This document shows positions 804-34,920 of a stretch of 64,000 nt of DNA, piece by piece (positions within the stretch are counted from its first letter, which is position 1; the number at the start of each line of letters is the position of its first letter). This DNA comes from an uncultured Bacteroidota bacterium (GTDB lineage: Bacteria > Bacteroidota > Ignavibacteria > Kryptoniales > JAKASW01), in the NCBI GenBank assembly GCA_963714955.1, contig CAVQQJ010000007.1:37917-101916 (forward strand), in the 5' to 3' direction. Both the position numbers and the translations under genes were made by a program. Below the pieces are notes generated by a model. That model was not told the DNA's origin and ran no database searches. It saw nothing but the letters and a program-made list of their open reading frames with translations.

Positions 804-1344
804 TAAAAGATTCCTTTATAAGTGTGTTTGTAAAAGAGACAGCATGACTTCCGTCTTTTTGAGATAATATCTATAATACGATTTTTACAGGGCTTATTCA
901 AATTACGGGAAGGAGGGGGGTGTGGTACGGTTTGAATGAACTTATCTATTCTCTACTTTCTCTGTTGCAGTAGAAAGAGGAAACGTCTCACTATATGGGA
1001 TTCTGTCCGTCATATTTTTGGAAAGCCGGAAGAGCTTTACCCGCTCCAAAGAGTAAAAAGGGGGGATGCTGTGAAGCGGCATTTGGTTAATTTCTTCAGC
1101 TGAAGGCATTCAGACTGCGTGAAAAGTCCATTGAGGTGTCATCCCCGCGCGCCGAAGGCGTTCTTTGGGGAAAAGCGGGAATCCATACCCTGCGAACATA
1201 AACTGGATTCTCGCCGAGTCGTCTTCGACCCACCTTCGTGGAAATGACAAAACCGGAGGATTGTTTTTTACACAATCTGCATTCCTTCGGAATCCGGAAA
1301 GGAGGTGCCATCGTAAGCTTGAGAGACTCCTCTTTTTTTCCGCA

Positions 1345-2502
1345 TTATTCAAATTGTAATTTGATGTTTATAATCTCCGGCCTGTTTCCCGTCCGGATGG
1401 GCGGTCCCCACGTTCCGACCCCGCATGAAACGTAATAGTGAGTACTTCCTTTTTTCTTATAGCCCCAGCTCAGTTCGTAGACTTTCTTCGTGATAAAATT
1501 AAACGGCCATAATTGTCCATGGTGAGTATGGCCTGAGAGCTGTAAGTCGACCCCGTTTGCTTCCGCTTCGGCAAGCCGGAAGGGTTGATGATCCATCAAA
1601 ATGACAGGATAACTTTTATCGACTTCCGCCATTAATTCCGAAAGAGGCTTCCTCGTCTTTCCGGTGAACCCGCGAATACTGATGTCTTCCCTTCCTACAA
1701 CGTACAGGCTGTCGCCGATCTTCACCCAAGTATCTCGCAGCATCGTGATGCCATGTTCAGCAAGGTACTTGCATGCCGGTTCGACCCCGCCGATGTATTC
1801 GTGATTGCCCGTAATCGCAAAAACCCCATATTTTGATTGTATCTTTCGCAATGTTTCACCGAGGTTGTTTCTGATCACGGGGCCGATGTCTTCGTCTACA
1901 ACATCGCCGGGGAGCAAGACAAGGTCGGGGTTGAGGGAGTTGATGTGTTCAACAATTCTTTCCAGCTTTGATTTGCAAACGATCGTGCCGAGATGGATAT
2001 CGGAAGCGACGGCAATATTCAGCGATTTTATTGCGTGACCGTTTTTTGGAATCGACAACTCAAGTGTCTTGATGATCGGCGTGCGGGCATTAACGTATCC
2101 TCCAAGCACGATGACCGTCACCATGATAATGACGACAAACGACGTTACTTCCTTTGTTCGCTCGGGATTGACGGTGAGGAATGACGGAAAAAATGGAACG
2201 ATGAAATTCAGAAGCCGGATGATATCGATCGCAAACGCGAACAGTAAAAAATAGACCATCGCTGCAAGCCAGAACGATCCGAGCAAAACTAGTGTGCTGC
2301 TCAACCAGGAAAGCGTGACACGTTCCAGCATTCTCCCGGCAATGAACGAGATGGACAAAAGAAGAAACGCCGCGACGTAGACTGTCCTCCATGTCGATTG
2401 AAATCCGCCGGCCTCCCATTCTCTGATGAAAATATAATAGTTGATAAGGGCGTAGACCGATAGAGCGATCGAAAAGAAAATAACGAAATTGATTTTTTTC
2501 AT
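1345..2502 (-). CDS. Membrane-anchored metallophosphoesterase (calcineurin-like)
   Basis: 385 aa. N-terminal TM helices, then the motifs ASDIHLG, LPGDVVD, GNHEY, GHTHHGQ. Confidence 0.85.
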   Translation of the reverse strand: MKKINFVIFFSIALSVYALINYYIFIREWEAGGFQSTWRTVYVAAFLLLSISFIAGRMLERVTLSWLSSTLVLLGSFWLAAMVYFLLFAFAIDIIRLLNFIVPFFPSFLTVNPERTKEVTSFVVIIMVTVIVLGGYVNARTPIIKTLELSIPKNGHAIKSLNIAVASDIHLGTIVCKSKLERIVEHINSLNPDLVLLPGDVVDEDIGPVIRNNLGETLRKIQSKYGVFAITGNHEYIGGVEPACKYLAEHGITMLRDTWVKIGDSLYVVGREDISIRGFTGKTRKPLSELMAEVDKSYPVILMDHQPFRLAEAEANGVDLQLSGHTHHGQLWPFNFITKKVYELSWGYKKKGSTHYYVSCGVGTWGPPIRTGNRPEIINIKLQFE

Positions 2503-2544
2503 GAAAGGCTGGATGGCAACAGGTGAGTAATCACGATAAAAACC

Positions 2545-3789
2545 TTACAGGCGAATAAAGATAAACGGCACGTGAAGGAGCGCCCAGACGGAGTACGTTA
2601 TTGCCGTCTCTTTCCTGTTCGTCGGCGACAGCACAGCAAAGTAGGCGCCCCTCGCAATCGTGTTGCTTAACATCGCGATGATAATCGCCGGAACTACTAT
2701 TTTCGACAAAGCATCCGACCCGCGAATCAACGAAAGGATAAACGGAACAACGTCGGTGACGCCGACAATCGTCGAAAGTCCGAGGACGCCTGTGTCTCCG
2801 AAGCTTTTTTGAACGATACCGGTGACAACAGAAAGAATGACGAACAATGCGGCAAACGCCATTGCCGGACGGATTTCAAACGGGTTCTGCAACGTCGGGA
2901 CCGAATTTTCAGTGTTTGTCGAACTCCGCCACATAATCCGAGCCGACAATGCAATGCCGATAAAAAAAAGGATCACCAGCCGCCAGGCCAACACAGGAAT
3001 AATACTGTCATTGATGATCCAGATCAAAATCAGAATCCGGAGATTCATGACGCTCCCCGCAAGAACCGACGCTTGCAACGCTTCCTCCGCGCGCTGGGGA
3101 TCCTTTCGTGCGATTCTCCCCACGGCCAAGGTCAGCGCGGTGCTCGAGATAACACCACCCAGCGCTCCAGACAGCCACATGCCGATCTTTTGGCCGAATT
3201 TTTTCGAAAGGAAGTAGCCGACAAAACCGATCGTGGAAACGAGGATGACAATTTTCCAAATGCTTGTCGGGTTGAGCTTAAACGGAGTGTATTCCTGGTC
3301 CGGAAGAACGGGGAGAATGATGACGGTAACAAGAAGGAATTTTATCGTGGCAAGAAATTCGACCTTGTTGAGCCGCTCAACATACGATTCGAGCGCAGCT
3401 TTTTCGGAAAGCAGAATGGTGTTGACGACGCCGATCGCCATTGCGATCCACACGTCGACGAGTAGAGCGAGCGCGCCCGTAACGAACGTGAGAAGCGCGG
3501 AGATTTCACTCGTCGACCCATAACGCTCGACTTTAATTTTTGCAATGTATGCAATCGACGTCAGTGCGGCGATGGACAACAAGCCGACCGGCAGCATAAG
3601 CACCGCGCCAATCTTGTAGAACCATGCGCAGCCGAACCCGAGCAGGCTGATGATCGGATGCGTGCGCACACCGCCGAATACCATTTTCTGCTCTTCGATT
3701 TTCGTGCTCTCGCGCTCCAACCCGACGAGAAACCCGAGAGCGAGAGCGACAAGAAAGCGCAACTCGGGCGTCCATTCAAATGTATTCAT
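2545..3789 (-). CDS. MgtC/SapB-family membrane protein with DUF4010-like extension
   Basis: 414 aa, polytopic. MgtC-type N-terminus (LALGFLVGLERE). Confidence 0.75.
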   Translation of the reverse strand: MNTFEWTPELRFLVALALGFLVGLERESTKIEEQKMVFGGVRTHPIISLLGFGCAWFYKIGAVLMLPVGLLSIAALTSIAYIAKIKVERYGSTSEISALLTFVTGALALLVDVWIAMAIGVVNTILLSEKAALESYVERLNKVEFLATIKFLLVTVIILPVLPDQEYTPFKLNPTSIWKIVILVSTIGFVGYFLSKKFGQKIGMWLSGALGGVISSTALTLAVGRIARKDPQRAEEALQASVLAGSVMNLRILILIWIINDSIIPVLAWRLVILFFIGIALSARIMWRSSTNTENSVPTLQNPFEIRPAMAFAALFVILSVVTGIVQKSFGDTGVLGLSTIVGVTDVVPFILSLIRGSDALSKIVVPAIIIAMLSNTIARGAYFAVLSPTNRKETAITYSVWALLHVPFIFIRL

Positions 3790-3933
3790 ACACTACCGTA
3801 TACAATATTTCGTTATAATCGTCTATATTCTTTTGCGGACGTGGGATCGTCGTTGAAATTTTCATGCGTGAATATAGAAATTCCCGATTACAGAATCAAA
3901 CAATTCGGCCGACAGGTGTGGCTACTGAATACC

Positions 3934-5961
3934 TTATTTCGTTATCCCAAACTCCTTCAACAAAAATGCGTACACGAACGCTTGTTCTTTGTATGCATCG
4001 TAGCGCCCCGAAGCGCCGCTGTGTCCCGCTCCCATATTCATTTTCAGAAGGAGAAGATTGGAACCCGTTTTCGTTGCACGCATTTTTGCGGCATACTTGG
4101 CCGGTTCCCAATACATGACTTGACTGTCATTGATCGACGCGGTGATAAGGATATCAGGATATGATTTCGTTTCGATGTTCGAGTAGGGGCAGTACGTTTT
4201 CATGTAGTCATAGTCGGCCTTCACATTCGGGTTTCCCCACTCAAGGTACTCGCCCACCGTTAGCGGCAATGTTGTGTCGAGCATTGTGTTTACAACATCC
4301 ACAAACGGCACAGCAAGGTGAGCGGCTTTACACAGAGCTGGGCGGATGTTCAAGACTGCTCCGATAAGCAAACCGCCGGCGCTCCCTCCTTGAATCGCAA
4401 GGCGGTCGTTCGATGTATACCCCTGCTTCACGCAATACTCTGCGCACGCGATGAAATCGGTGAATGTAGTTTTCTTCTTCAACATCTTTCCGTCATCCCG
4501 CCATTGGTCTCCCATCTCGCCCCCTCCGCGGATATGAGCTATGGCATAGACAACGCCTCGCTCAAGCAGGCTTAAACGCGGGATGGAAAAATCTACGGGG
4601 ATCGAAATACCGTATGAGCCGTAGCCGTACAACAATAGCGGACGTGAGCCGTCCCTTTTCATTCCATTCTTGTACACGAGTGAAATCGGAATTTCCGTTC
4701 CGTCGGATGCCCTCGCCCAGACGCGTTCCGACACAAATTGTGCCGGGTCGTACCCGCCGAGAACTTCCGTCTGTTTCAACAGCACGATCTCTCCCGACTC
4801 CATATTGTACTCGAACACCGAACTTGGCGTGATGAACGATTGATAACTGTAACGGAATTTCGTTGTGTGGAATTCGGGATTAGCGCTGGGGAAGGCGGAG
4901 TAGACGGGCTCGGGAAAACCAATGTCCTGAATTCTATCCGCCCGAAAATCAAGCACGCGCAGCGTGTTCAGCGCATTCTTTCGTTCGCTGAAGACGGCAT
5001 GATTTCTGAACAATGCCACATCTTCTAATTTTGTGTCAGTCCGATGAGGTACAAGTTCATTCCAATTCTCGGGCGACGGTTTCTCAACAGGCGTCGTGAC
5101 AAGTCGAAAGTTTTTTGCATTCTTGTTTGTACGAATATAGAAAAGACCTTCGCGATGGCCGACGGAATACTCGTGCCCTTCTTCCCTTGCCAGCAGGAGC
5201 GCAAACTTATTCTCCCCCCTGTTGCTTGAGAGATACCATACTTCACTGGTGATCGAACTTTCCGAGTAAAGGAATATATATTCGTGGTCGCTCGATCGGC
5301 TTACCCAAACCCTATACAACTCGTCCTTTTCTTCATACACCACGTCATCGTTTGACATCCCAAGCACGTGCTTGTGTAATCTGTACGGACGCTTCGCATA
5401 ATCTTCCTTCACATAGAAGATCGTTTTGTTGTCGGACGCCCACTCAGCTGAATTTACCTGCCCGAGAGCATCCGGTAAAACTGCCCCCGTTTGAAAATCC
5501 TTAATGTATCCCCGATATTCGCGAAACCCGGTCGTGTCGAGGGAGTAGAGCAGGAGGTTTCCATCGTCGCTGATTTTGTACAGCCCAAGCCCGAGGAATT
5601 GATGCCCCTTTGCGAGCTCGTTGAGGTCGAGCGTGATCTGTTCCACCCCATCCATCGACCCATGTCTGCGGCAATACAGCGGGTATTGTTTTCCTTCTTC
5701 TGTTCTTGTGTAGTACCAATACTCTCCGTATTTGTATGGCGCGCTGAGGTCGGTCTGTTTGATGCGGCCGAGGATTTCCTTGTAGAGAGACGCTTGGAAC
5801 TCTTCCGTCGGCTTCATCACTGATTCGGTGTAGGCATTCTCGGATTCCAGGTAAGCGATGACTTCCGGGTCTGTCTTTTCCCGCAACCAGTAATAATTGT
5901 CTATCCGGATGTCGCCGTGAACGGAATCAACCTTGGGGATTATTTTTGCGGAGGGAGGCAC
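3934..5961 (-). CDS. ptrB: Oligopeptidase B (S9A prolyl oligopeptidase family)
   Basis: The N-terminus PPSAKIIPKVDSVHGDIRIDNYYWLRE aligns with the start of E. coli PtrB. Catalytic serine motif GGSAGG is present. The track ORF starts at a GTG at 6060, but its first 33 codons are only the translated heptad repeat. The GTG at 5961 gives the canonical N-terminus. Confidence 0.88.
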   Translation of the reverse strand: MPPSAKIIPKVDSVHGDIRIDNYYWLREKTDPEVIAYLESENAYTESVMKPTEEFQASLYKEILGRIKQTDLSAPYKYGEYWYYTRTEEGKQYPLYCRRHGSMDGVEQITLDLNELAKGHQFLGLGLYKISDDGNLLLYSLDTTGFREYRGYIKDFQTGAVLPDALGQVNSAEWASDNKTIFYVKEDYAKRPYRLHKHVLGMSNDDVVYEEKDELYRVWVSRSSDHEYIFLYSESSITSEVWYLSSNRGENKFALLLAREEGHEYSVGHREGLFYIRTNKNAKNFRLVTTPVEKPSPENWNELVPHRTDTKLEDVALFRNHAVFSERKNALNTLRVLDFRADRIQDIGFPEPVYSAFPSANPEFHTTKFRYSYQSFITPSSVFEYNMESGEIVLLKQTEVLGGYDPAQFVSERVWARASDGTEIPISLVYKNGMKRDGSRPLLLYGYGSYGISIPVDFSIPRLSLLERGVVYAIAHIRGGGEMGDQWRDDGKMLKKKTTFTDFIACAEYCVKQGYTSNDRLAIQGGSAGGLLIGAVLNIRPALCKAAHLAVPFVDVVNTMLDTTLPLTVGEYLEWGNPNVKADYDYMKTYCPYSNIETKSYPDILITASINDSQVMYWEPAKYAAKMRATKTGSNLLLLKMNMGAGHSGASGRYDAYKEQAFVYAFLLKEFGITK

Positions 5962-6093: not shown

Positions 6094-7323
6094 CTACTTT
6101 ATCCTTTTCACGACCACAATCGTCTTATCATCGGAATACTTCCCCTTCGAGCCAAACTTCTGAACATCTTCCAGAATCAACCGTGCAATATCCTTCGCAC
6201 TCTCTTGTTTGAATTCTAAGAGCTTGTCGATCAAACGTTTTTCCGAATATTGGTTCCCGGATGCATCCATTGTCTCCGTCACTCCGTCCGTAAACAGCAA
6301 AAGAACGTCTCCCTTGGCGATCATAATTCCTTCACTCCGAAACGCCTGGTCGGGAAAAGGCCCGATGACATTTCCCGTCGATTCAAGCGCCTCTGTTGTG
6401 TTTGTCTTTGCCCGGTAGAGAATTGGATTGGGATGCCCCGCGTTGACATAAACGCACAAGCCGTGTTTATCGTTGATAAGTTCGGCATAAAAGAGAGTGA
6501 GGAACCTGTCATCGCTGAACGCCCGGTGAACGAGCGTATTGATGTTCCGGATGAGTGCGGTGATTTTTGTTTGGTACGACGCGCCCATGCGGAGGGCGCC
6601 GGAAACGTAGAGCGCCTGAACGGCGGCAGAAATTCCTTTGCTCGCCGCATCGCCGATGACAATGCTGACGCGGTCATTGTCATCGCTCACGATGTAGTCA
6701 AAAAAATCTCCGCCGACGACCCTGTCGGCGACAGAGACGCCGAACATTTCATAATTATGGAACCGCAGTTCGTGTTCCGGAAGAATGCTCCGTTGAATCT
6801 CGCGTGCCTTATCCAAATCTTTCTCGATCTGCGCGCTCTTCCGCTCGATATGCCTGCTCTTCAACATCGACGTTACAGCGATGCCGATAATGTTGAGTGT
6901 CGGCGCGATCTGGTCGTGCGTCAAGTCGGTGTTAAACGACATCACGTACCGATAGAGTTCGCCGTCTCTTACTTTTACTAATTCCCCAACGCCGGTCGCC
7001 GAATATTTAAAAATCCCTTTGCTTCGAAGATAGGCATTGGTCTCCTTGGCAACAATGGTGCGTTGTTTTGGCAGCGTTTTGAACACACGATATTCGTTTA
7101 CTTTGACGAGAAAGTGAGGCTTTATTTTTTCCATCGCCCCCACCTGCCCGACAAGCTCGTACGCATATTTGGTCGCGTTCAACTTCCACACGCGCCCCCC
7201 TTGAATTTCGATCCTGTCATTCTGGACGATCTGATGGAGCACGTGCTTAAGGAGCTCTTCACTGGAATCGAATTTCCTGCTGTCGAAACTTTCAATCGTC
7301 TTGTGTAATTGTCTCTGATTCAT
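6094..7323 (-). CDS. PP2C/SpoIIE-family serine phosphatase (RsbU-like) with an uncharacterised N-terminal domain
   Basis: 409 aa. Motifs GGDFFDY, GDAASKGISAA, LLLFTDGVTE, DDKTIVVVKR. Confidence 0.85.
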   Translation of the reverse strand: MNQRQLHKTIESFDSRKFDSSEELLKHVLHQIVQNDRIEIQGGRVWKLNATKYAYELVGQVGAMEKIKPHFLVKVNEYRVFKTLPKQRTIVAKETNAYLRSKGIFKYSATGVGELVKVRDGELYRYVMSFNTDLTHDQIAPTLNIIGIAVTSMLKSRHIERKSAQIEKDLDKAREIQRSILPEHELRFHNYEMFGVSVADRVVGGDFFDYIVSDDNDRVSIVIGDAASKGISAAVQALYVSGALRMGASYQTKITALIRNINTLVHRAFSDDRFLTLFYAELINDKHGLCVYVNAGHPNPILYRAKTNTTEALESTGNVIGPFPDQAFRSEGIMIAKGDVLLLFTDGVTETMDASGNQYSEKRLIDKLLEFKQESAKDIARLILEDVQKFGSKGKYSDDKTIVVVKRIK

Positions 7324-7510: not shown

Positions 7511-7561
7511 TAAAACACACATTTATGCATTGTCATCAGTACGGCAAATGCTCCGTTCCTA

Positions 7562-9106
7562 ATTGCCTCATGTAAGAATCTCGATGAGAGATGATTCGTT
7601 GCCTCACGTAAGGATCTCGATGAAATGGTAGTCAGAATGTTCATTGAGAGACCTGTGGATTGGGAGAGCGGTTGTCAGTATGAAGAATCTTTTGTTGTAA
7701 AGCAACAGGATCAGATGGGATGGTATAGATGCGCCACGGATGCATTATTTTTGGGTAGCCCGGTGGAATCCTTGAGATTTTGGGAGCGCGTAGAGCCGAG
7801 TGAGAGAGTTGTTGTTGAAGATCAGCAATCGACCTCATGAGTTGAGCAGGATTGAGAGTGTCATAGAGGGTGGAGAGCTGATCTTTGATGTTTTGAGAAA
7901 TCGCAGGATGCTGAATGACCCGGTGGTATGGAGTCAGGGGCGGATCATAACGCCGAGAGACTCTGCTGCCGATGCGGACTTTTTCACGGAGCCTCATACT
8001 GGGCTGAAAGAAGTTGGTGTAGAGTCTGAGGTGCTGGTAGAGGGTGCGCAAGAGCTGAAGCTGCTCAGCTTGATCATAGCGATAATAGCCGACAGTTTTG
8101 CGAACGACGGAGTAGTTTTTTTGCTCGATGAAACAGTTGTCATTCTTGCGATAGGGACGGCTGCGGGTAAAGGTAATCTGATGTTCATCACAATAGCGAA
8201 GCAGCTGATTGTTGATGAACTCGCCCCCGTTATCGGAGTCAATGCCGAGCAACGGAAAAGGGATCGTACGAGTGATATCCTGTAAGGCGGCAAAGACATA
8301 ACATTGGGCCTTGTTTTTGACGGCTCGTGTTTCAGTCCAGGCAGTAGCAATATCGGTAACATCGAGGCTTTGGATATAATCGCCGTAGGCAATACCGCCG
8401 TCGTGAGCAACCAGATCAACTTCGACAAAACCAGGCATGGCATCATTCCAATCGGCAAAAGTACGAATGGGGATGTGATGCTTTAAGAGGGTGCCCGGTT
8501 TTGTGTGTGAGCGTCCTTTGAGGCGACTTTTTGCTTTGGTTGGTCCTAACAGACGGTCAGCGGTTGCGTGGCTCATGGTAAGCAACTTTGAGCGAAGCTC
8601 ATCGTTAAGTAAGAGTTCTCCATAGCGTTCAAGGATAGGCAGAGTTTGGCGGATAAAGACCACGAGTCGTTTACCGCACAATCCGTTGGAGATCGCCCAC
8701 AAACGCTTCAGCGCTTCCTCAACGGGTTTGTCGTAGATACACGCGCGCTTTCGACGGTGCCTCGTAAGAGACAGTTGCCCAACAACGGCGATGACACGCC
8801 GACCGTCAACGACACAGTTCTTTCGACGTCCGTAGTTTTTTAAGAGAAACGACGCATAACAGCGTCCATATCCGGTGAGAGCGGTAAACTCGTCGAGGAT
8901 CCGTATGCGTTCACGCTTCGTTGAGCGCTGGTATCGAGGTGCAAGCTCTTTGACAACAGCATAACGTTCTTTCATGGTAAGCCCCATCGTTTACCTCCTG
9001 TCAGGTGATGATAGCTGGCAGGAGTATCTGAAAATTGTGATTGATTTGATATAGATTTTTCCGTGAGGCAATCACATGTTTTCCTATAGATTTTTGATGA
9101 GGCAAA
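7562..9106 (-). mobile_element. Insertion sequence, about 1.55 kb, carrying a single DDE transposase
   Basis: Imperfect terminal inverted repeats: ATTGCCTCATGTAAGAATCT (7562-7581) matches the reverse complement of 9088-9106 (TTTGCCTCATCAAAAATCT). A second TTGCCTCAYG copy lies 34-36 bp inside each end (7599-7608 and 9062-9071). No target-site duplication could be identified. Confidence 0.8.
7641..8987 (-). CDS. DDE (rve/integrase-core) transposase. The family (ISNCY- or IS481-like) was not resolved.
   Basis: 448 aa. N-terminal HTH-like region (ILDEFTALTGYGRCYASFLL). Candidate DDE triad: VEVDLVAHDG, GIDSDNGGEF, CFIEQKNYS. Confidence 0.85.
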   Translation of the reverse strand: MGLTMKERYAVVKELAPRYQRSTKRERIRILDEFTALTGYGRCYASFLLKNYGRRKNCVVDGRRVIAVVGQLSLTRHRRKRACIYDKPVEEALKRLWAISNGLCGKRLVVFIRQTLPILERYGELLLNDELRSKLLTMSHATADRLLGPTKAKSRLKGRSHTKPGTLLKHHIPIRTFADWNDAMPGFVEVDLVAHDGGIAYGDYIQSLDVTDIATAWTETRAVKNKAQCYVFAALQDITRTIPFPLLGIDSDNGGEFINNQLLRYCDEHQITFTRSRPYRKNDNCFIEQKNYSVVRKTVGYYRYDQAEQLQLLRTLYQHLRLYTNFFQPSMRLREKVRIGSRVSRRYDPPLTPYHRVIQHPAISQNIKDQLSTLYDTLNPAQLMRSIADLQQQLSHSALRAPKISRIPPGYPKIMHPWRIYTIPSDPVALQQKILHTDNRSPNPQVSQ

Positions 9107-9149
9107 TCGCGTTCTTGATTGCCCGCCGATTTTTCCCTACATTTTTATC

Positions 9150-11806
9150 ATGTCAACCCCGCTCATGAAGCAATACTCCGAGGTAAAGGCGAAGTATCCC
9201 GGCACCATACTTCTCTTTCGCATGGGGGATTTTTTTGAAACATTCGATGAGGACGCAAAAGTTACCTCACGCGTTCTCGGCATCACCCTCACGCGGCGCG
9301 GCAACGGCGCGGCGGGAGAAACACCTCTTGCCGGATTTCCCCATCATGCGCTCGATACCTATCTGCCGAAGCTGCTGAAAGCCGGTCTTCGCGTTGCGAT
9401 ATGCGAACAGCTCGAAGACCCGAAGTTTGCCAAAGGAATTGTCAAGCGGGACGTCATCGAAGTCGTTTCGCCCGGAGTTGCATTTTCGGACAAAGTGCTT
9501 GACCAGAAACAGAACAATTATCTGGCGGCAATTGCCCTTCCCTCAGCCGTGGCAACCGGAGACGACATGATCGGATTTTCCTACGTCGATATTTCCACCG
9601 GCGAGTTTGCGACGACAGAGATTCCGTTCCGCGCTCTTGAACAGCAAATCAATTCCATTACTCCCTCTGAAATCATTGTCCAGAAAAGAGATAAGGATGC
9701 ACTGCGGCAGCTTTTGAGGTCGTGCTACAGCGGCCTTTTCACGACTATCGACGATTGGGTCTTTCATTTCGATTACGGCTACGAAACGCTCGTCCGTCAT
9801 TTTCACACCCAGTCGCTCAAAGGCTTTGGCGTCGATGCGATGTCGGTTGGCATCGCGGCGGCGGGATCCGTGATGCATTATCTCAACGAAACTCAGAAGA
9901 CAAACCTCGCTCATATTCAAAAAATCGTCCCTTACAATATTTCCGACATTATTGTTCTCGATCCTTCAACGAAACGGAATCTCGAAATCACCTCATCGTT
10001 CGGAGGGACATCCGACGGAACTCTTTTCTCGGTGCTTGACCGGACCTTGACGCCGATGGGCGGAAGGCTTCTAAAAAAATGGATCTCACATCCGTTGAAA
10101 AGGATCGATCAGATCCGATGGCGATCCGGCGGTGTGTCGACGTTCGTCCAAAATGATTCAACGCGGAAGAAAATATCTGCCGAACTCGCTGAGATCGGTG
10201 ACCTGGAGCGCCTCATCGCAAAGATCGCGACGGGCAGGGCAACGCCTCGCGACATGGTCGCGATGAAGCATATACTGCGCCGCATTCCAGTCCTGAAAAC
10301 TATTCTTCATGAGGAAACGACTCCGCCTTTTTCCGAGATTAATTCAGCCTTGCAGCCAATCGACTCGGTTGCCGATGCTATTGAACAAGCGATCTTCGAT
10401 GCTCCGCCGATGAATTTTGCCGACGGAGGTGTCATCAGGCGCGGATACAATACCGAACTGGACGAGCTGACGACACTGGCACATTCCGCGAAAGAGTGGG
10501 TCGCGAATATGCAGAAGAAAGAACGGGAGCGGACCGGAATTTCGTCGCTCAAAATCGGCTTCAATAATGTGTTCGGCTATTACATCGAGATCACTCACAC
10601 GCATAAAGACAAAGTCCCCGCCGATTACATCCGCAAGCAGACGATGACAAATGCCGAGCGATTCATCACCCCGGAGCTGAAAGAGTACGAAGAAAAAATC
10701 CTTCACGCAGAAGAAAAAATTCTCACGCTCGAAACGACGCTCTTCAATGAACTGCGAATGCTCGTCGCCTCGCACGCGGCAATCATCCAGCAAAATGCCC
10801 AACAGATTGCCGTGCTCGATTGCTTTGTGTCGCTCGCCCAGGTAGCCGTTGCAAACCAATACGTTTTGCCGGAAGTCAACGACTCGACGCAGTTGTCTAT
10901 CGAAAACGGTCGCCATCCGGTTATCGAAATACTTTTACCCGTTGGCGAAAAATATGTTTCGAACTCGGTGTCGATCGATACGAACGAAAATCAAATTCTG
11001 ATCATCACGGGGCCAAACATGAGCGGGAAATCTTCCTACCTGCGCCAGGTCGGTTTGATTGTGCTGCTCGCGCAGATCGGAAGTTTTGTCCCGGCGAAAA
11101 AAGCGGTGATCGGATTGGTCGATAATATCTTCACCCGCGTGGGCGCAAGCGACAATATTGCTTCCGGCGAGAGCACATTTCTCGTGGAGATGCACGAAGC
11201 AGCAAACATCGTGAACCGCGCGACGTCGCGAAGCCTGATTCTTCTGGACGAAGTCGGCCGCGGCACCAGCACATTCGACGGTATCAGCATCGCTTGGGCG
11301 TTGACAGAATATCTGCACGAACACATCGGGGCCCGGACGCTGTTCGCGACGCACTACCACGAACTCAATGAGCTGGCGGAGCTTTTCCCCCGCATCAAAA
11401 ACTACAAGGTGGATGTGCGGGATACGGCGATAAGGTTATTTTCCTTCATACCGTCACGCCCGGGACAGCCGACCATTCATACGGCATTCAGGTTGCGAAG
11501 ATGGCAGGTTTGCCGGAAGAACTCACGGAACGAGCAAAAAAAATACTCAATAATCTTGAAGATACGCAGCTACGTCCTCATGGTTCAGGAGATGGAGGAC
11601 ATCTTGAAGAAGTCCTTCATCTGCACGCCGGCGGCAGAAGGACAATCACCCCACATGCCGGCGACAAGATACAACTCACCATGTTCGAGATGAAAGATGA
11701 CGAACTGCGCGCCACACTCAACAAGCTGGACATCGATTCGTTGACACCGCTCGAAGCATTAAAACTGCTTGCAAAATTGAAAGCAAACCTTTCAAAGAAC
11801 GATTAA
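9150..11806 (+). pseudogene. mutS: DNA mismatch repair protein MutS, interrupted by a 1-nt deletion near 11421-11423
   Basis: Frame 0 reads a normal MutS (mismatch-binding N-terminus, Walker A GPNMSGKS) up to KNYKVDVR. The conserved C-terminus [46 protein letters not shown] continues in frame 2, through to the stop at 11806. The sequence cgg ga- tac is missing one base of a GAA codon. Confidence 0.9.
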
Positions 11807-11872
11807 GAAACTCTCACACCACGAGGACGAAATCGCAACGCCAAACTCAAGTGAATGTTCTTGACATACGAA

Positions 11873-11938
11873 GCCCCGTAGGGGGCAACATGTTTGTAGG
11901 GCAGGCAAGAACCGTTCAAAAAGCTCCGTCAGGAGCGA
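11873..11938. repeat. REP-like hairpin pair on the left flank of the RAYT gene
   Basis: CCCCGTAGGGGG and GCTCCGTCAGGAGC hairpins. AAGCTCCGTCAGGAGCGA (11921-11938) is the exact reverse complement of 12442-12459. Confidence 0.8.
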
Positions 11939-11957
11939 AATGTAAAAGGGGAACCAT

Positions 11958-12451
11958 GTGGCAAATACATATTCTCAAATCTATGTTCAAATGACTTTTG
12001 CTGTTCAGGGAAGGCAAAATCTTTTGCAACCCGAGCAAAAGGAAGAGATCCACAAATTTATCACGGGTATCGTTAGGAACAAGAACCAAAAACTCCTCCG
12101 AATCAACAGTGTCCGGGACCATGTTCATATCCTTTTTGAGCCTCAAACCCGACATCGCCCTTTCTGATCTGGTCCGAGATATCAAAGCGAATTCTTCTCG
12201 ATTCATCAACAAGAAGGGATGGCTGAAGGGAAGATTCAACTGGCAAGAAGGTTTTGGTGCTTTTTCATATTCCCACTCACAACTCGATCGAGTTATTAAC
12301 TCTATCAACCGGCAAGAAGAGCATCATCGAAAAACCACGTTCAAAGATGAGTACTCTTGCTTTGTTGGAAAAATTTCAAGTGAACTTTGATCCCAATTAT
12401 TTGTTTGATTGGATGGATAAGGAAACGACGATAGCTTCATCTCGCTCCTGA
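11958..12451 (+). pseudogene. REP-associated tyrosine transposase (RAYT, IS200/IS605 Y1 TnpA-like) with two frameshifts
   Basis: MANTYSQIYVQMTFAVQGRQ...DHVHILF (HUH motif) in frame 0. KPDIALSDLVRDIKANSSRFINKKGW...QEEHHRKTTFKDEY in frame 1. LALLEKFQVNFDPNYLFDW in frame 2. The shifts lie near 12133-12139 and 12350-12358. Confidence 0.85.
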
Positions 12452-12504
12452 CGGAGCTTGGCCCCCTGCAGAGTGATATTACAAACATCGGGCTCCTACG
12501 GAGC
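12442..12504. repeat. REP-like hairpin pair on the right flank of the RAYT gene, inverted relative to 11873-11938
   Basis: TCGCTCCTGACGGAGCTT is an exact inverted copy of the left flank. TTACAAACATCGGGCTCCTACGGAGC mirrors GCCCCGTAGGGGGCAACATGTTTGTA. Confidence 0.8.
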
Positions 12505-12687
12505 TATTAGACTCAAATTGTTAATGACAGCTTGAGATTTTTTGGACAATCTCAACATTGCAGCTCGGTGACAAAGACTTTTCAGAATTCTATTTTCTGA
12601 TTATTTGCACTGGCCTCTTATCCTTCCCTCTTGCAGTACAGAGAGAACCGCTTTATCACAAATCACTTAACAAGACAGGGATATATC

Positions 12688-13183
12688 ATGAACCTTAATG
12701 ACATCAACCTCCTTTACGAATTCAACTATTGGGCAAAAGGAAGAATGCTGGGAGCGGTTGACTCGCTTTCGGAAGAACTCCTCTACAACGATTTGAAAAC
12801 GAGCTTTGGAACCCTTCATGGCACGCTTGTCCACATTTGCGCCGCGGAAGATGTCTGGCTGCACAGGCTCACCGGAACGGCCAGTCCAAAATTCCTTACG
12901 GTAGCCGACTTGCCGACATTACAGTGCCGTCAAGGCAAAATGGCAGGAGGTAGAGAAAGGCATGCTTACCTACGTTCATTCCCTCACCGAAGAACAGCTT
13001 TCGCAGACATTTACATTCTTAAACATCAAAGGCGAACCGGTGAGTAATGTGTTGTGGCAGGCGCTCCAACATCTCGTCAACCATGGCACGTACCACCGCG
13101 GACAAATCACCTCGATGATTCGGCAGCTCGGCGGCACACCCGCGAACACCGACCTTATCGGATTCTACCGGCAAAAAAAGTGA
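12688..13183 (+). pseudogene. DinB-family (DinB_2/DUF664-like) protein with one frameshift near 12922-12926
   Basis: The N-terminal part MNLNDINLLYEFNYWAKGRML...FLTVADLPTLQ is in frame 1. AVKAKWQEVEKGMLTYVHSLTEEQL...HLVNHGTYHRGQITSMIRQLG continues in frame 2. Confidence 0.75.
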
Positions 13184-15992: not shown

Positions 15993-16067
15993 TCCGCGAT
16001 AGCTCAATGGTAGAGCATGCGGCTGTTAACCGCAGGGTTGTAGGTTCGAGCCCTACTCGCGGAGCCA
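15993..16067 (+). tRNA. tRNA-Asn (anticodon GTT) with encoded CCA
   Basis: Manual cloverleaf. Acceptor stem TCCGCGA/TCGCGGA. D arm GCTC-AATGGTA-GAGC. Anticodon arm TGCGG-CTGTTAA-CCGCA. T arm GTAGG-TTCGAGC-CCTAC. Discriminator G, then CCA. Confidence 0.93.
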
Positions 16068-16109: not shown

Positions 16110-16560
16110 TTTCTTCAAATCCCGCCTGAAAGTTCCATGGAAGATCGACTACCTCGTTCAATTTCGTGGTTCGATATTTTTTCTCTTCGTAAACCAATCT
16201 CTGCGGAAATATTGAACCAAGAATCTTTCCCTTCAACTCTGGTATAGCATTGTCAAAAGCTGCGTCCAGGTTTGCGACAATAGAAACGCCGAATTCTTGA
16301 TACTCCATGAAATTGTCCCCCGCCTTAATAAGGTCTTCTTTTTTGAGTGAGAGTTCCGTTTTTCTTTGCGAAAGACTGTCTTTGAGTCTTTTGTATGAGC
16401 CTTCTTCCATTTTCTTCTGAACGTAGTAGGTATTGTCGATTTCAAAAAGGGCTTTCTCTATTGAGGTCAGTTCTTCATCAATCTTTTCAAGATTCTTTTT
16501 CTTGTCTCCCTCTTTTTCTCGGAAGATGTCTTCCAGTATCTCAAGATAAAGCCTCATAAT
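16110..16560 (-). pseudogene. C-terminal remnant of a serine recombinase (coiled-coil/recombinase tail). The catalytic N-terminal domain is missing.
   Basis: RLYLEILEDIFREKEG...SIEKALFEIDNTYYVQKKMEEGSYKRLKDSL...ILGSIFPQRLVYEEKKYRTTKLNEVVDL resembles the tail of Bacteroidota-type serine recombinases. The 261-aa track ORF (15892-16677) is a chimera that reads through the terminator and the tRNA antisense strand. Confidence 0.55.
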
Positions 16561-16566
16561 TTCAGG

Positions 16567-17773
16567 GTGGCAACGCAGGGCTACGGATCCGTTCAACGAT
16601 CCTCCGAGACCGACATCGCGAACATGGAAGATTTCCTGACCGGCGGGTATCAGTTTCGACATAACGGTGTCACTCAAAGAACCGAAATCACCAAGGCTTC
16701 AGAGGAAGACTATCGGGTGATCGACGACTTCACGATTAACTCTTTATTCAGGCAGCTTCGGTACAATGGACTGCCCATCAACATCGAAGCACTCCATCAT
16801 ATTGTGGAATCCGACTTCGCCGAAATCTATGATCCGTTCAATGAGTATTTCGATGGATTGAGTGAGTGGGATGGTAACGAGGACTACATTGCGAATCTCG
16901 CGTCGACGCTGACTTTGCGACATCCCGAAGAGCGTGAGACGTTTCTCGATTGCCTGAAACGTTGGTTGGTCGGTCAGGTCGCTTGCGCCATCGGCGATGG
17001 CGTGAACCAGACGGCCATCATACTGGTCGGACCTCAGGGAATCGGAAAGAGTACTTGGCTCAATCGACTGATTCCTCCAGCACTCAATTCTTACAGGTTT
17101 GTTGGGACCATTTATCCGGATAATAAAGACACGTTGTTCTGTCTCTCTGAAAAAATGTTGATTAACTTGGATGAACTGGAGACCTTGAATAAAGGCGAAA
17201 TAGGATCGTTAAAAACGATTATGACGTTGGATAACGTAAACGTTCGACCGCCGTATGGTAGGTATTCGGCCAACTTGAAGCGGCGAGCCTCATTCGTCGG
17301 TTCCATCAACAACACGGACTTTCTTAACGATGCAACAGGTTCACGGAGATTTTTGGTGTCTGAAGTGGATGCTTTTGATTTGAATGCCACGGTTGATATG
17401 GATAAGGTTTACTCGCAAGCAAATGCTTTGCTAGAAGATGGGTATCGGTGGTGGTTCGATCAGGCGGAAATTGAGAAGATCAATGAAAGCAATAAACGCT
17501 ATCTGCGGCGGACGCACGAGCACGAACTGTTGAACCAATATTTCAAACACGGAGTTGAACAGGAAGTGCAGCAGCGAATGGTTGAACGCAAGCGATGTAG
17601 CTCGCAAGTTGTTGGATGTGCATCGAAGCTTTCACATTGATGACAAATCCGTTCGAAACCTTGGCATTGCATTGACTGCTGAAGGTTATCCGAGTAAAAA
17701 TTCAAATGGGTCGAAAAAGTACTTCGTCATGGTGGATCCCATGATTGCGAGATCTCGGGGGCTGCTTCAGTAG
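16567..17773 (+). pseudogene. VapE/VirE-family P-loop NTPase (mobile-element primase/helicase-associated), frameshifted near 17555-17580
   Basis: Walker A GPQGIGKS, Walker B LINLDELE, RRFLVSEV. The expected C-terminal wHTH-like tail (SEWLNASDVARKLL...NLGIALTAEGYPSKNSNGSKKYFVM) continues in another frame, to 17773. Confidence 0.7.
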
Positions 17774-18098: not shown

Positions 18099-18213
18099 TG
18101 CTACTGCTGCCCCCTAATGCATAGTCCCTCATCGATTTTCGGATCCTTCACGCGTCCAATGACGATGAAAGTTTCGGTTAGAGTTACTACAATATGGTAA
18201 CAGGAGTAACTAT

Positions 18214-18450
18214 ATGAAACGACCAGCATTAATGAAGCAGCAGCTCGACACTATGAGCTTCATCGAAAACTATTTCAAAGAACACGAGTGCGCCCCCAGC
18301 CAGGCGGAGGTCGCCAAGGAATGTAAAGTCCGCCAGGAGAACTTCGGAAAGATCCTTGCAGCATTGGAGAAGAAAAATTACATCAACTTGAAGTACGGCG
18401 AGGCAAGAGGAATTGAATTGGTGGTGTGGAGTGACGAGGGAGATAAGTAG
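18214..18450 (+). CDS. Small winged-helix DNA-binding protein resembling the LexA N-terminal domain, without a peptidase domain
   Basis: 78 aa. PSQAEVAKECKV...ILAALEKKNYINLKYGEARGIEL. Confidence 0.6.
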   Translation: MKRPALMKQQLDTMSFIENYFKEHECAPSQAEVAKECKVRQENFGKILAALEKKNYINLKYGEARGIELVVWSDEGDK

Positions 18451-22472: not shown

Positions 22473-24749
22473 TTTTAGCAACAACAGTTTCTTCGTGGCC
22501 ACAAAATTCCCCGCTTCGATCCTGTAGAAATATACCCCGCTCGCTTGCCTCGACCCATCGAAGGTGACCTGATACAAGCCCGGTTGTTTCTGTTCGTTCA
22601 CCAATGTCTTCACTTCTCTTCCAAGCACGTCGTAAACCTTCAATGTGACGAAACCGTTTACCGGCAACTGATAGCTGATGAGAGATGAAGGATTAAACGG
22701 ATTTGGATAGTTCTGTTCAAGAGCAAAATGAATCGGAATCTCTTCTGGGTTATCCTTAACGCCGGCGACCATGTCAGATATGGCGCGGCGCCACACTCCG
22801 CATGCAGAGCTTCCCCCCGCAAAACCCCCGCTTGTAGAGCTACCGCTGGTAGAGCTTCCGGTTGCAGAACCGACAAAGACAAATGTTCCTTTGGGGTCGA
22901 CGGCAACAGAAGAGATCAAGAGATTAGCCAATCCTTCATTGGCCGCTTTCCAGCTGGAACCGTTGTTCGTGGATAGATACACGCCGCCAAGTCCAATGCC
23001 AGCAAAGATAGTCGATCCATCTGGAGTGACGGCGAGAGAATTGACCCACGGAGTTGGTAATCCATTGTTTATTGCCTTCCAACTTGTACCGTTGTTCGTG
23101 GAGAGAAAGACTCCGCCGCCATTAGTGCCAGCGAAGAGTCTCGTCCCATCGGGGCTGATCGCAAGAGAATAAACATAATCATTCGTTAATCCAGAGTCGA
23201 CAACTGTCCAACTTGTACCGTTGTTCGTGGAGAGAAAAACTCCGCCTCCATTAGTGCCAGCGAAAAGTCTTGTCCCATCGGGGCTGATCGCAAGAGAGTA
23301 GACGGAGTCGTTTGTTAGTCCAGAGTCGACCGCCGTCCAGTTTGAACCGTTGTCGGTGGAAAGAAAGACGCCGTTGTGGGTAGTGCCGGCAAATATGTTC
23401 TTCCCGTTGGGACTCATTGCAAGAATTCTGGCCTGATCATTTGTTAACCCATTGCTGACTGATACCCAGCTTGAACCGTTGTCCGTGGATTGATACACGC
23501 CGCTATAGTAGGTACCAGCAAAGATGTTTGACCCATTCGGGCTAATCACAAGAGACCCGATGCCATTTTCCCCCATTCCGTTGTTGATCGCCGTCCAGCT
23601 TGAACCATTGTCGGTAGAAAGAAAAGCTCCGTAAGAGTCACTGCCCGCAAGGATATTCGTATCGCCGGGAGTGAATGCAAAAGATAAAATAAAGACGTTC
23701 GTTATTCCGTTATTCTCAGCTGTCCAACTTGAGCCGCCGTTCGTAGAAAGAAAGACTCCATCGGAATGAGTGCCGACGAAAATGTTCATCCCGTTGGGGC
23801 TCAGCGCGATGGTCCACACGCCCCCCAATTCAGAGCCTATTGTCCGCCAGCTCGAACCGTTATCGGTTGAAAGGAAAACGTCATCACCACCACCCCAACA
23901 ACCGGCGTAGATATTCGCACCATCTTGGCTAATTGCAAAAGAAGAGATGTTGGTGTTCGTTAATCCGCTGTCGACGGCTGTCCAGCTAGAACCATCGTTA
24001 GTAGAGCGAAAAAGTCCTGCGCCCCACGGGCCTGTTGAGATAATCGGCCCGCTGTTAGGGCTGACTGCGGCAAAGATGCTCCCATTCTTTGTGCTTATTG
24101 CAAGAGAATAGACGTTCATGTTTGTTAATCCGCTGTTAACCGCCATCCAGGTTGAACCATTGTCCGTCGAAAGAAAAATTCCGCCACCTAAAGTGCCTGC
24201 GAATATCTTCGATCCATCAGGACTGACAACAAGAGACCAAATATTAGTGTTGGTTAGTCCACTGTCTACTGCCGTCCAGCTTGAACCGTCATTCGTTGAC
24301 AGAAAAACTCCGCTACCAGTTCCCGCGAAGATTTTCGTCCCATCAGGATTTATTGCAAGGGAGTTGACGCCAGTGTTAGGTAAACCATTGCTGACCGCTA
24401 CCCAGCCTGAACCGTTGTCTGTTGAAAGAAAGACTCCACTGATCCAGCTTTGACAGCCTGCAAAGATATTTTTTCCATCAGGGCTAATTGCAAAAGAAGA
24501 AATGCCTGCGTTTGTTAATCCAGAGTATGTCCAGCTTGAACCGTTGTCAATGGAATGAAACACTCCGCCGCCCCATGTTCCTGCAAAGATATTAGTTCCG
24601 TCCGGGGTGATTGCAAGGGCATGAACGCTACCACCATACGGTCCATTACTTTGCACCCATTGAGCGATCGATGAATGTGCATCGGTGAATATTACAAACA
24701 CCACTAATATGAATCGGAAGATGTTTTTCATTTCCTTATCCTTTTGCAA
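22470..24749 (-). CDS. Secreted Asp-box/BNR-repeat beta-propeller protein with a T9SS C-terminal sorting domain
   Basis: 759 aa. Signal peptide. At least 12 tandem units of about 43-47 aa (GGVFLSTDNGSSWTAV-SGLTN). C-terminal domain NYPNPFNP...VYDVLGREV...SGVYFYRIEAGNFVATKKLLLLK. Confidence 0.85.
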   Translation of the reverse strand: MQKDKEMKNIFRFILVVFVIFTDAHSSIAQWVQSNGPYGGSVHALAITPDGTNIFAGTWGGGVFHSIDNGSSWTYSGLTNAGISSFAISPDGKNIFAGCQSWISGVFLSTDNGSGWVAVSNGLPNTGVNSLAINPDGTKIFAGTGSGVFLSTNDGSSWTAVDSGLTNTNIWSLVVSPDGSKIFAGTLGGGIFLSTDNGSTWMAVNSGLTNMNVYSLAISTKNGSIFAAVSPNSGPIISTGPWGAGLFRSTNDGSSWTAVDSGLTNTNISSFAISQDGANIYAGCWGGGDDVFLSTDNGSSWRTIGSELGGVWTIALSPNGMNIFVGTHSDGVFLSTNGGSSWTAENNGITNVFILSFAFTPGDTNILAGSDSYGAFLSTDNGSSWTAINNGMGENGIGSLVISPNGSNIFAGTYYSGVYQSTDNGSSWVSVSNGLTNDQARILAMSPNGKNIFAGTTHNGVFLSTDNGSNWTAVDSGLTNDSVYSLAISPDGTRLFAGTNGGGVFLSTNNGTSWTVVDSGLTNDYVYSLAISPDGTRLFAGTNGGGVFLSTNNGTSWKAINNGLPTPWVNSLAVTPDGSTIFAGIGLGGVYLSTNNGSSWKAANEGLANLLISSVAVDPKGTFVFVGSATGSSTSGSSTSGGFAGGSSACGVWRRAISDMVAGVKDNPEEIPIHFALEQNYPNPFNPSSLISYQLPVNGFVTLKVYDVLGREVKTLVNEQKQPGLYQVTFDGSRQASGVYFYRIEAGNFVATKKLLLLK
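23079..23336 (-). repeat. Near-identical 129-bp (43-aa) tandem duplication inside the T9SS gene
   Basis: 23079-23207 and 23208-23336 differ at only a few positions. They encode DSGLTNDSVYSLAISPDGTRLFAGTNGGGVFLSTNNGTSWTVV and DSGLTNDYVYSLAISPDGTRLFAGTNGGGVFLSTNNGTSWKAI. Confidence 0.9.
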
Positions 24750-24805
24750 AGTGTGACGGCCAATTGCAGCTAACTACTGCAATGGCACCATAAGTAATTC
24801 GTGTG

Positions 24806-24886
24806 TTCTAACGAACCCTCGCCGCTGCGGCGACGCGCGTCAGTTGTTCTTTAGCGGGGACTATTTCCTTTTTAGAATGGTTTGCC
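24806..24886 (-). repeat. attC-like intergenic repeat (complete three-block copy)
   Basis: TTCTAACGAACCCTCGCCGCTGCGGCGACGCGCG...TTTAGCGGGGACTATTTCCTTTTTAGAATGGTTTGCC. Confidence 0.55.
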
Positions 24887-24938
24887 CGCGCGTGGTGGAA
24901 TACTCATTTGACAAGCGATAAAGATATTACTTGGGCTG

Positions 24939-25718: not shown

Positions 25719-25756
25719 CTTCTCATTCCATTGACGGCTGGTTTAAAATACGGCAA

Positions 25757-25840
25757 CGCCAACGACGGCGAACGGACCGTCGCTCCTGTCAAGAGCAGCT
25801 GGACAGGTAAGCTGCGGCGACGTGCAACACTGCTTGACTA
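25757..25840 (-). repeat. attC-like intergenic repeat (divergent copy)
   Basis: CCAACGACGGCGAACGGACC...GCTGCGGCGACGTGC...GACTATTTC. It abuts the stop codon of the T9SS gene. Confidence 0.4.
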
Positions 25841-27397: not shown

Positions 27398-27482
27398 GGT
27401 ATTCTCCTTTTCACTTGGTCATGGTTGTTGTCAAATTGCGACGGCAACCAACCTGCGTAATCATGTATGCTTTATTCACACC

Positions 27483-27564
27483 GCCTAACGAACCCTCGCA
27501 CGCTGCGGCGACATGCTTCCACCTGTTTTTTAGCGCGGACTCTTTCCTTTCAAAATGGTTAGGC
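27483..27564 (-). repeat. attC-like intergenic repeat, the best-formed copy (82 bp, GCCTAAC ... GTTAGGC)
   Basis: GCCTAACGAACCCTCGCACGCTGCGGCGACATGC...TTTAGCGCGGACTCTTTCCTTTCAAAATGGTTAGGC. The terminal 10 bp are complementary (ACCGCCTAAC / GTTAGGCGGT). The stop codon of ORF 27559-27903 lies inside the GCCTAA core. Confidence 0.6.
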
Positions 27565-27903: not shown

Positions 27904-27934
27904 GGTGAGTGTCTCCTTTTGAATGTAGAGTGTT

Positions 27935-27990: not shown

Positions 27991-28032
27991 ATACAGGATT
28001 ATTTATTGGAAACGGCACCAGGCAGCTGACAA

Positions 28033-34918: not shown

Positions 34919-34920
34919 TA

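Follow-up and report, generated by a model that had tools for sequence, protein, structure and literature searches.

A genuine IS insertion upstream of mutS and a probable consensus error within it in an uncultured Bacteroidota bacterium

Has an uncultured Bacteroidota bacterium lost mismatch repair? The question is raised by a 64,000-nucleotide stretch of its DNA (the window), part of a 129,485-bp contig, in which the mutS gene is frameshifted and an insertion sequence (IS) lies immediately upstream of its start codon. Taken at face value, the locus would point to a natural mutator from soil or sediment, with the loss of mismatch repair as the explanation for the other broken genes in its genome. 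We propose instead that two unrelated events are superimposed here: a genuine IS insertion and a base deletion that is probably absent from the organism's DNA, the frameshift at 11422/11423 being, with a probability of about 0.7, a consensus error of the assembly.

The mutS gene (plus strand) starts at 9150, and its first 757 codons plus two nucleotides (9150–11422) encode domains I–IV and most of domain V (Pfam MutS_I to MutS_V). Its remaining 127 codons and the stop, which encode the C-terminal tail and the last part of domain V, are in a shifted frame (11423–11806). Domains I–V follow one another in order, and the profile scores of the gene exceed the curated cut-offs (984.6 bits for PRK05399, cut-off 480; 892.7 bits for TIGR01070, cut-off 641.7), as befits a MutS1 protein; as assembled, however, no single frame runs through domain V and the tail. 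At the break the frame from 9150 reads GTG CGG GAT ACG (VDVRDTA), the conserved YGDKVIFLH... tail continues in the next frame from 11423, and Pfam MutS_V is divided between the two frames at profile position 144/145. In the window GA is followed directly by TA (11421–11424), where all relatives have GA(G/A)TA. Indeed, GAA or GAG followed by TAC is found in all of some 60 relatives, GAGTAC being the form in the closest ones, and so exactly one base is missing. A preliminary description of this DNA had placed a missing base at about 11421–11423 and the C-terminal 128 codons out of frame; both claims were borne out, the 128 being 127 codons and the stop. The displaced segment is 96% identical to an intact JGI protein (P0121). 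The deleted form of the site is GTGCGGGATACGGCG, and the k-mer pair for the site is GGATGTGCGGGAGTACGGCGATAAGGTTATT versus GGATGTGCGGGATACGGCGATAAGGTTATT. A scan of JGI metagenomes for GTGGATGTGCGGGA[N]TACGGCGATAAGGT recovered just two contigs, neither of which lacks the base; the deletion was likewise seen in no contig of the JGI metagenomes and nowhere in the protein collection searched. Exact-protein look-ups with the 847-aa and 842-aa MutS products gave no match, and two large protein searches returned no relative above 96% identity and no second, independent assembly of this strain. One protein that begins at the V of VDVREY (P0245) was considered as a third frameshift at the site and rejected, the cause being a scaffold gap.

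The preliminary description had called for comparison with sister genomes, and the base proved to be present not only in the some 60 relatives but also in the nearest haplotype. This haplotype is represented by a second contig of the same assembly (L090), which is approximately 95–97% identical to the window, has the identical IS–mutS junction, and carries an intact GAGTAC at the site of the window's deletion. L090 has lesions of its own: mutS has lost 1 nt at window position 9417, the gene for 2-hydroxyacid dehydrogenase has gained an A, and an ADH gene is split. The two mutS sequences differ by approximately 4.5% (dS = 0.18). When both are repaired, dN/dS between them is 0.053 (100 synonymous and 19 non-synonymous changes), and 3′ of the frameshift it is 0.013 (20 synonymous changes to 1 non-synonymous). 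Among the window-specific changes 3′ of the frameshift, the non-synonymous share is no higher than in relatives. As judged by these substitution patterns, purifying selection on mutS is strong, also in the part that follows the frameshift.

Natural mutS-null mutators, arising from frameshifts, deletions, and IS disruptions, occur among isolates of E. coli, Salmonella, and Pseudomonas aeruginosa. Like these alleles, a real 1-nt frameshift that cost the protein its C-terminal tail and the last part of the ATPase domain would be null. Unlike them, the window has no long branch, transition excess, relaxed selection, or independent confirmation. Its terminal branch carries 139 singletons, as compared to 66–482 in five relatives, and its transition/transversion ratio is 3.8, as compared to 1.8–5.0; hence the excess of substitutions and strong transition bias that would mark a mutator were not seen relative to those five genomes. 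Nor did ClpB or SpoIIE show any singleton amino-acid change, and selection on mutS showed no sign of relaxation either overall or past the frameshift. No mutL was identified among those ORFs of the window that were scanned against Pfam. With the deletion missing from L090, with purifying selection on mutS, with an ordinary branch, and with frameshifts confined to contigs of one assembly type (see below), the proposal of a mismatch-repair-deficient mutator lineage is unsupported. We note that neither dN/dS nor branch length would have changed if a real mutation had arisen very recently.

The window's contig was apparently produced by a Flye-style metagenome assembly from Nanopore reads alone. 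The transposase of its IS is present on two contigs of ENA assembly ERZ25039480 with Flye-style names (contig_23582 and contig_23587), the genomes closest to the window are long-read (Nanopore) MAGs of the Microflora Danica project, and a multi-copy IS was assembled through within the 129-kb contig. That project used Flye with --meta --nano-hq and one round of Medaka 1.8.0, with no short reads (PMC12313526). According to the same group, Nanopore bins below approximately 40x still need polishing, and indels in the Nanopore consensus lead to frameshifts in gene calls (PMC9262707). In the clade of the window, 3 of 19 contigs of Flye type have a frameshifted mutS, as against none of 66 others (Fisher p = 0.01). 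A tBLASTN frame check of the same 16 kb found no unique gene-breaking indel in seven loci of short-read type (L004–L006, L008–L010, and L012), in agreement with a DNA-level scan of four of them. Meanwhile, of the Flye-type loci in this check, L011 had three gene-breaking indels, all in one gene, and L082 had one together with a nonsense change.

Within the window, four window-specific 1-nt indels lie inside 11423–12917, and none was found in the other approximately 13 kb of syntenic coding sequence. Beyond mutS, the cluster includes a hairpin (GCCCCGTAGGGGGC, 11873–11886) in which the window has one more G than any relative; an IS200-like Y1 transposase gene (11958–12390, plus strand), in which Pfam Y1_Tnp is spread over two ORFs by an extra T (T5 at 12133–12137 versus T4 in L083, L086, L011, and L090); and a DinB-like gene (12631–13183, plus strand) with a window-specific +1 at approximately 12917, which is intact (167 aa) in L090. 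Only the change from T4 to T5 extends a homopolymer run of at least four, the +G at 11881 counting as a second run indel if variation in L090 at that position is disregarded. Probable frameshifts were seen further off in a BNR/T9SS gene (approximately 36.53 kb) and a BON-domain gene (44.23 kb), and ORFs of 700–1278 aa are intact. Thus, the earlier impression of many indel-disrupted genes holds for the IS200-like and DinB-like genes and probably for the BNR/T9SS and BON-domain genes, but several apparent cases dissolved into separate genes, namely an M90 peptidase and SpoIIAA-like pair, a GNAT and T9SS protein pair, and the ORF upstream of 2-Hacid_dh. The disrupted genes had been taken to fit a mutator; they point instead to consensus error. 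The broken IS200-like and DinB-like neighbors are dispensable, and real decay would predict the same. The far end of the 40-kb island was also checked for an att repeat of tRNA-Asn, and none was detected.

In several respects these indels resemble the Nanopore consensus artefacts that IDEEL-type truncated-protein tests reveal: single-base changes split conserved genes, are confined in the window's clade to Flye/Medaka contigs, are absent from short-read assemblies, and are locally clustered. The mutS indel in particular is a singleton that the closest haplotype lacks, and indels of this kind track assembly technology. Classic Nanopore artefacts fall in long homopolymers, whereas here only one indel is in a run and several lie at or beside GTAC, which suggests a possible effect of DNA modification. 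In L082, from an unrelated sample, mutS has gained a C 3 nt from the position of the window's deletion, right after GAGTAC, and among the gene-breaking singletons of Flye-type contigs, 4 of 11 are no more than 2 nt from GTAC (p = 9e-5; the association is post hoc, and p = 0.012 after correction for 136 4-mers). Most GTAC sites are unaffected by indels, and no window-specific amino-acid singletons were found near GTAC. Basecalling errors linked to modification are a known effect of Nanopore sequencing. The deletion would thus be a residual error of a Nanopore-only consensus (Flye and one Medaka round), aggravated by the co-assembled sister haplotype; a modified GTAC site may also have promoted it. 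If so, the living cell would have an intact, working mutS, and the lineage would be no mutator.

The IS insertion is of a different kind. The element is 1551 bp long (7559–9109, minus strand), and its site is empty in relatives: L002 and L004 have GGTCCGTTCTTGATTGCCC, with a single CGTTC, as compared to the two copies that flank the IS in the window (7554–7558 and 9110–9114). The right boundary at 9109, which is backed by a third copy of the element (L089), leaves 40 bp before the mutS ATG at 9150. The preliminary description had reported an IS ending at 9106, 43 bp from the ATG, which was essentially right, and the comparison of the 7.5–9.2 kb junction with relatives that it had suggested establishes the insertion as genuine. 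A multi-copy ISNCY/ISBj12-like element has transposed into the SpoIIE–mutS intergenic region, duplicating CGTTC.

The insertion point coincides with the 5′ edge of a conserved mutS-proximal block (CGTTCTTGATTGCCCGCCGATTTTTCCCTACATTTTTATC, 9110–9149, plus strand) that is kept in L002–L011 and L082, among which nothing upstream of it can be aligned. The block has a promoter-like layout (TTG, a spacer of approximately 20 nt, and TAcaTTTT), and is likely to be a core promoter of the Bacteroidota −33/−7 type; a scan of the mutS plus strand for promoters of the sigma-70 type gave no site. Because of the target-site duplication, the 40-bp block is still contiguous with mutS. Thus, the claim that the native promoter had been displaced stands only for sequence upstream of approximately −36 and fails for the proximal block. 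With its candidate core promoter kept next to it, mutS would most likely still be expressed.

Could the deletion nonetheless be real? A recent event is conceivable, albeit unlikely, whereby a strain or sub-population carries a mutS null allele, truncating domain V before the helix-turn-helix and removing the C-terminal tail, and is deficient in mismatch repair but too young to show a genomic signature. Two observations that count against a consensus error speak for it: the base is absent at a site outside a homopolymer, the classic context of Nanopore errors, and the window is otherwise clean, with no gaps relative to an independent Logan contig (L001) over 1531 bp of the IS and with its long ORFs intact. 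Nearby dispensable genes are broken as well, and mutS mutator alleles are known from natural populations. Set against this, the sister haplotype is without the deletion, selection is not relaxed downstream, and there is neither a long branch nor an excess of transitions. That only one of four clustered indels falls in a homopolymer is unlike the spectrum of mismatch-repair deficiency, the frameshifts occur only in Flye-type contigs (one of them, from an unrelated sample, at a distance of 3 nt), and the JGI metagenomes and protein collection yielded no contig with the deletion. It is far more doubtful that the mutS indels are both real and recurrent, with independent inactivation in the window, L090, and L082, twice within 3 nt at GAGTAC. 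Were it so, there would be a GTAC-linked mutational hot spot, for example where a restriction-modification target is nicked or repaired, and mutator alleles would be maintained in the population, downstream of an IS insertion held in common.

The shared junction invites a further possibility, namely that the IS silenced mutS in the ancestor of both haplotypes and that a decaying pseudogene then acquired independent frameshifts at 11423 in the window and at 9417 in L090. This would account for an identical IS–mutS junction in haplotypes approximately 4.5% apart in mutS, each with its own frameshift. We regard it as very improbable: a dN/dS of 0.05 over a dS of 0.18 is incompatible with neutral decay since the split, the conserved promoter block is retained, and a single mismatch in 1550 bp between the IS copies means that the IS may have arrived long after the haplotypes diverged. 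As for programmed recoding, by which full-length MutS would be regained through a −1 shift of the ribosome or slippage during transcription, the perfectly conserved downstream frame is all that favors it. A slippery heptamer or homopolymer is absent at GCGGGATACGG, and the relatives effectively exclude it, since all of some 60 use one frame and L090 is in frame here.

If consensus error is the correct explanation, Nanopore-only MAGs can mimic mutator biology, in that single-base errors split conserved genes and recur in the same gene across related bins, and such errors may concentrate at a putatively modified GTAC motif. Pseudogene and mutator calls in these MAGs would then need confirmation from reads or short-read data. 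The biology that is left is modest: an IS that inserted at the 5′ border of a conserved, putative promoter block and left the block in place.

Finally, the element itself appears to be an uncatalogued member of the ISNCY/ISBj12-like group, placed by comparison with annotated transposase genes. Its DDE/rve transposase (7641–8987, minus strand; 448 aa; Pfam rve, 33.7 bits) is directed away from mutS and is 42–48% identical, over 86–91% of its length, to plasmid genes annotated as ISNCY or ISBj12-family transposases. Assignment to the IS481 family was rejected (NCBIfam transpos_IS481, 44.7 bits, below the cut-off of 224). The exact 444-aa product is encoded on three contigs, the window's being the longest, and copies of the IS are present on three contigs and one Logan contig. 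Relative to the window, L089 has 4 mismatches, L090 has 1, and the Logan contig has 1, with no gaps over 1531 bp, a T8 run included. The 13-bp terminal inverted repeat, CGATTTGCCTCAT, is perfect in the L089 copy, around which no target duplication was seen, and the left terminus of the window's copy is CTAATTGCCTCAT. The single DDE/rve transposase of approximately 445 aa, terminal inverted repeats, short target duplication with an empty site in relatives, and multiple copies are all shared with the ISNCY elements related to ISBj12. Those elements belong to rhizobia and actinobacteria, whereas the host here is an uncultured Bacteroidota/Ignavibacteriota-like lineage. Also unlike them, the IS has doubled subterminal repeats at both ends. 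At the left end (7563–7623) two direct copies of TTGCCTCA(T/C)GTAAG(A/G)ATCTCGATGA lie 36 bp apart (family D1) and have mirror copies at the right end (I2 and I3); at the right end (9057–9105) two copies of TTTT(C/T)(C/G)(G/A)TGAGGCAA, presumably transposase-binding sites, lie 34 bp apart (families D10 and D5).

The mutS gene (from 9150, plus strand) lies beyond a divergent PP2C/SpoIIE phosphatase gene (6094–7323, minus strand) and a gene for a DDE/rve transposase of 448 amino acids (7641–8987, minus strand), and is followed by an IS200-like Y1 transposase gene, a DinB-like gene and clpB. The frame opened at 9150 runs to ...NYKVDVR, continues as DTAIRLFSF... and ends with a stop codon at 11693; the conserved MutS continuation occupies the next frame (11423–11806), and the Pfam MutS_V domain is split over the two frames with the break at profile position 144/145. 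All of the approximately 60 related loci read GTG CGN GA(A/G) TAC GGN where the window reads GTG CGG GA- TAC GGC, and the preliminary description was therefore exact in reporting a missing base.

To what extent mutS is truly inactive can be judged from a sister haplotype (L090; ENA ERZ25039480 contig_23587), which spans the insertion sequence (IS), mutS, the Y1 gene, the DinB-like gene and clpB, directly followed by a 2-hydroxyacid dehydrogenase gene. Its IS–mutS junction is the same as that of the window. At the site of the window's frameshift L090 is intact (GGGAGTACGG), and its mutS has a 1-nt deletion of its own at window position 9417 (GAA-ACCC). With both frameshifts repaired, 100 synonymous and 19 non-synonymous substitutions separate the two genes (dS 0.18, dN/dS 0.053), of which 20 and one, respectively, lie in the 128 codons past the window's frameshift; a count polarised against other relatives revealed no non-synonymous excess in the window's MutS tail. 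This substitution pattern argues that purifying selection on mutS is strong over essentially the whole separation of the haplotypes. The lesions in the two mutS genes are thus either extremely recent or not real.

The distribution of frameshifts among assemblies bears on this choice. The genomes nearest to the window are Microflora Danica long-read MAGs. That project used Nanopore reads alone, assembled by Flye (--meta --nano-hq) and polished in a single Medaka 1.8.0 round (PMC12313526); the same group showed that further polishing is required for Nanopore bins below ~40x and that the indels left over break up gene calls (PMC9262707). For the window's MutS product, the source contig listed is 129,485 bp long; contig_23582 and contig_23587 of ERZ25039480 have Flye-style names. 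We infer that the window is a contig of this Nanopore-only Flye/Medaka type, which fits the fact that a multi-copy IS of 1.55 kb was assembled through within a long contig. A tBLASTN frame check over ~16 syntenic kb found no unique gene-breaking indels in seven short-read-type loci (L004, L005, L006, L008, L009, L010 and L012), in agreement with a DNA-level scan of L004, L005, L006 and L008. Among Flye-type loci, a single gene of L011 contains three +1 insertions inside 400 bp, L082 carries both a frameshifted mutS and a nonsense change in SpoIIE, and L002 has a +C close to a gene end. Overall, mutS is frameshifted in three of 19 Flye-type contigs versus none of 66 others (Fisher p = 0.01). 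In the window, four single-base indels specific to it are clustered in 11423–12917 (mutS -G, a hairpin +G, +T in the Y1 gene and +1 in DinB), and none was found in the other ~13 kb of syntenic coding sequence. L090 has a +A in its dehydrogenase gene (window 56763), which is split into 228 and 77 amino acids (2-Hacid_dh), and a split alcohol dehydrogenase gene (ADH_N/ADH_zinc_N) in addition to its split mutS; two neighbouring DUF6603 genes on L089 (contig_23582, 1080–4971) may be one split gene. Split genes of this kind fit a high rate of residual indels in ERZ25039480.

We therefore consider the mutS frameshift to be most likely a consensus error (probability about 0.7). A real null allele that arose very recently, the other way to reconcile a broken frame with the selection pattern, is unlikely, and the related proposal of a mutator lineage is not supported: the window's terminal branch has 139 singletons with a ts/tv of 3.8 in 8.4 kb of aligned genes (66–482 and 1.8–5.0 for five relatives), no window-specific amino-acid changes were found at invariant positions of ClpB and SpoIIE, and only one of the clustered indels is a homopolymer extension (T4 to T5). 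Other genes split by indels are indeed present in the assembly, as had been described, but the same assembly problem explains them better than loss of mismatch repair does. Pseudogenisation driven by the adjacent IS is contradicted by the dN/dS and is highly improbable, and recoding that would restore MutS is excluded for practical purposes.

A possible link between indels and the motif GTAC emerged post hoc. The mutS indel of L082 is a +C right after GAGTAC, 3 nt from the G deleted from GAGTAC in the window. Because the site has no repeat, this coincidence has no apparent biological mechanism, and a GTAC effect would account for it. The nonsense change of L082 is a G to T within GTAC, the +C of L002 comes after GTAC, and the frameshift in a BON-domain gene of the window is 5–8 nt past a GTAC; four of 11 gene-breaking singletons are within 2 nt of one (p = 9e-5, or 0.012 corrected for choice among 136 4-mers). 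Base modification at motifs of this sort disturbs Nanopore basecalling. Among 4-bp palindromes in the whole window, CTAG (observed/expected 0.10) and GTAC (0.45) are strongly depleted, and the rarity of GTAC would be compatible with the lineage having a restriction-modification system that targets GTAC.

The IS upstream of mutS is real and ordinary. Region 7559–9109 is missing from relatives that are syntenic on both sides at ~85% nucleotide identity; the unoccupied site in L002 and L004 reads ...CCGTTCTTGATTGCCC..., and CGTTC flanks the element on the left (7554–7558) and right (9110–9114). A second copy, in a different context on L089 (9867–11417), shares the boundary at 9109 and has perfect 13-bp terminal inverted repeats (CGATTTGCCTCAT); a doubled subterminal repeat with TTGCCTCA is present at either IS end. 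No target-site duplication is recognisable around the L089 copy, which suggests either that copies were rearranged with one another or that a flank contains a sequence error. The transposase shares 42–48% identity with plasmid genes whose annotation is ISNCY or ISBj12-family transposase, and it does not pass the IS481 and IS3 models. Its exact product, in a 444-aa form, was found on three contigs, the window's being the longest and the others L089 and L090. A Logan short contig (L001), which extends from the left IS boundary to a point ~20 bp before the right one, differs from the window's IS by one mismatch and no gap. The element is thus a multi-copy, active-looking ISNCY-type IS. Between the window and L090 it differs at one base in 1550, whereas adjoining mutS and flanking DNA differ by ~4.5%; the IS may have spread recently to the same site in both haplotypes, gene conversion may have acted between copies, or multi-mapped reads may have made the copies uniform during polishing.

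The mutS promoter region had also been described as displaced, but it was not moved as a whole. Not even close relatives can be aligned 5' of ...TTCTTGATTG..., and the 40 bp up to the ATG (TTCTTGATTGCCCGCCGATTTTTTCCTACCTTTT..ATG) are kept even in relatives at 77% MutS identity. This block contains TTG, a spacer of ~20 nt and TAccTTTT, which we take to resemble the Bacteroidota -33/-7 promoter type; a promoter scan found no sigma-70-type site on the mutS strand. The insertion point of the IS coincides exactly with the 5' edge of this block, which was preserved through target duplication. The insertion may take away upstream regulatory input, but silencing of mutS cannot be assumed.

Finally, ~40 kb (16.07–56.2 kb; segment 15993–56200) are missing from L090 and the related locus L003, in which clpB closely precedes the 2-hydroxyacid dehydrogenase gene (window 56420–57478). 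The segment begins immediately past tRNA-Asn (15993–16067) with genes for a VapE-like primase (16465–17637) and a LexA-like HTH protein (18169–18447) and looks like a tRNA-linked genomic island, although neither an integrase nor an att repeat was found for it. It encodes a serpin (29128–30411) and at least five BNR/Sortilin-repeat paralogues that carry C-terminal sorting domains for type IX secretion (22473–37163); the gene of one paralogue (34924–37163, minus strand) is in two pieces, probably through a frameshift near 36.53 kb. The gene for a protein with six BON domains (43172–44888) is in two frames, its extra base being located by repeat comparison in GTACACCTTCAGC (44228–44240), adjoining the GTAC site. 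The Y1 gene directly 3' of mutS (11873–12450), which has a GC hairpin in front of it (in relatives GCCCCGTAGGGGC), is syntenic in L011, L083–L086 and L090 and missing from L002–L005 and L082; it may be domesticated or REP-associated.
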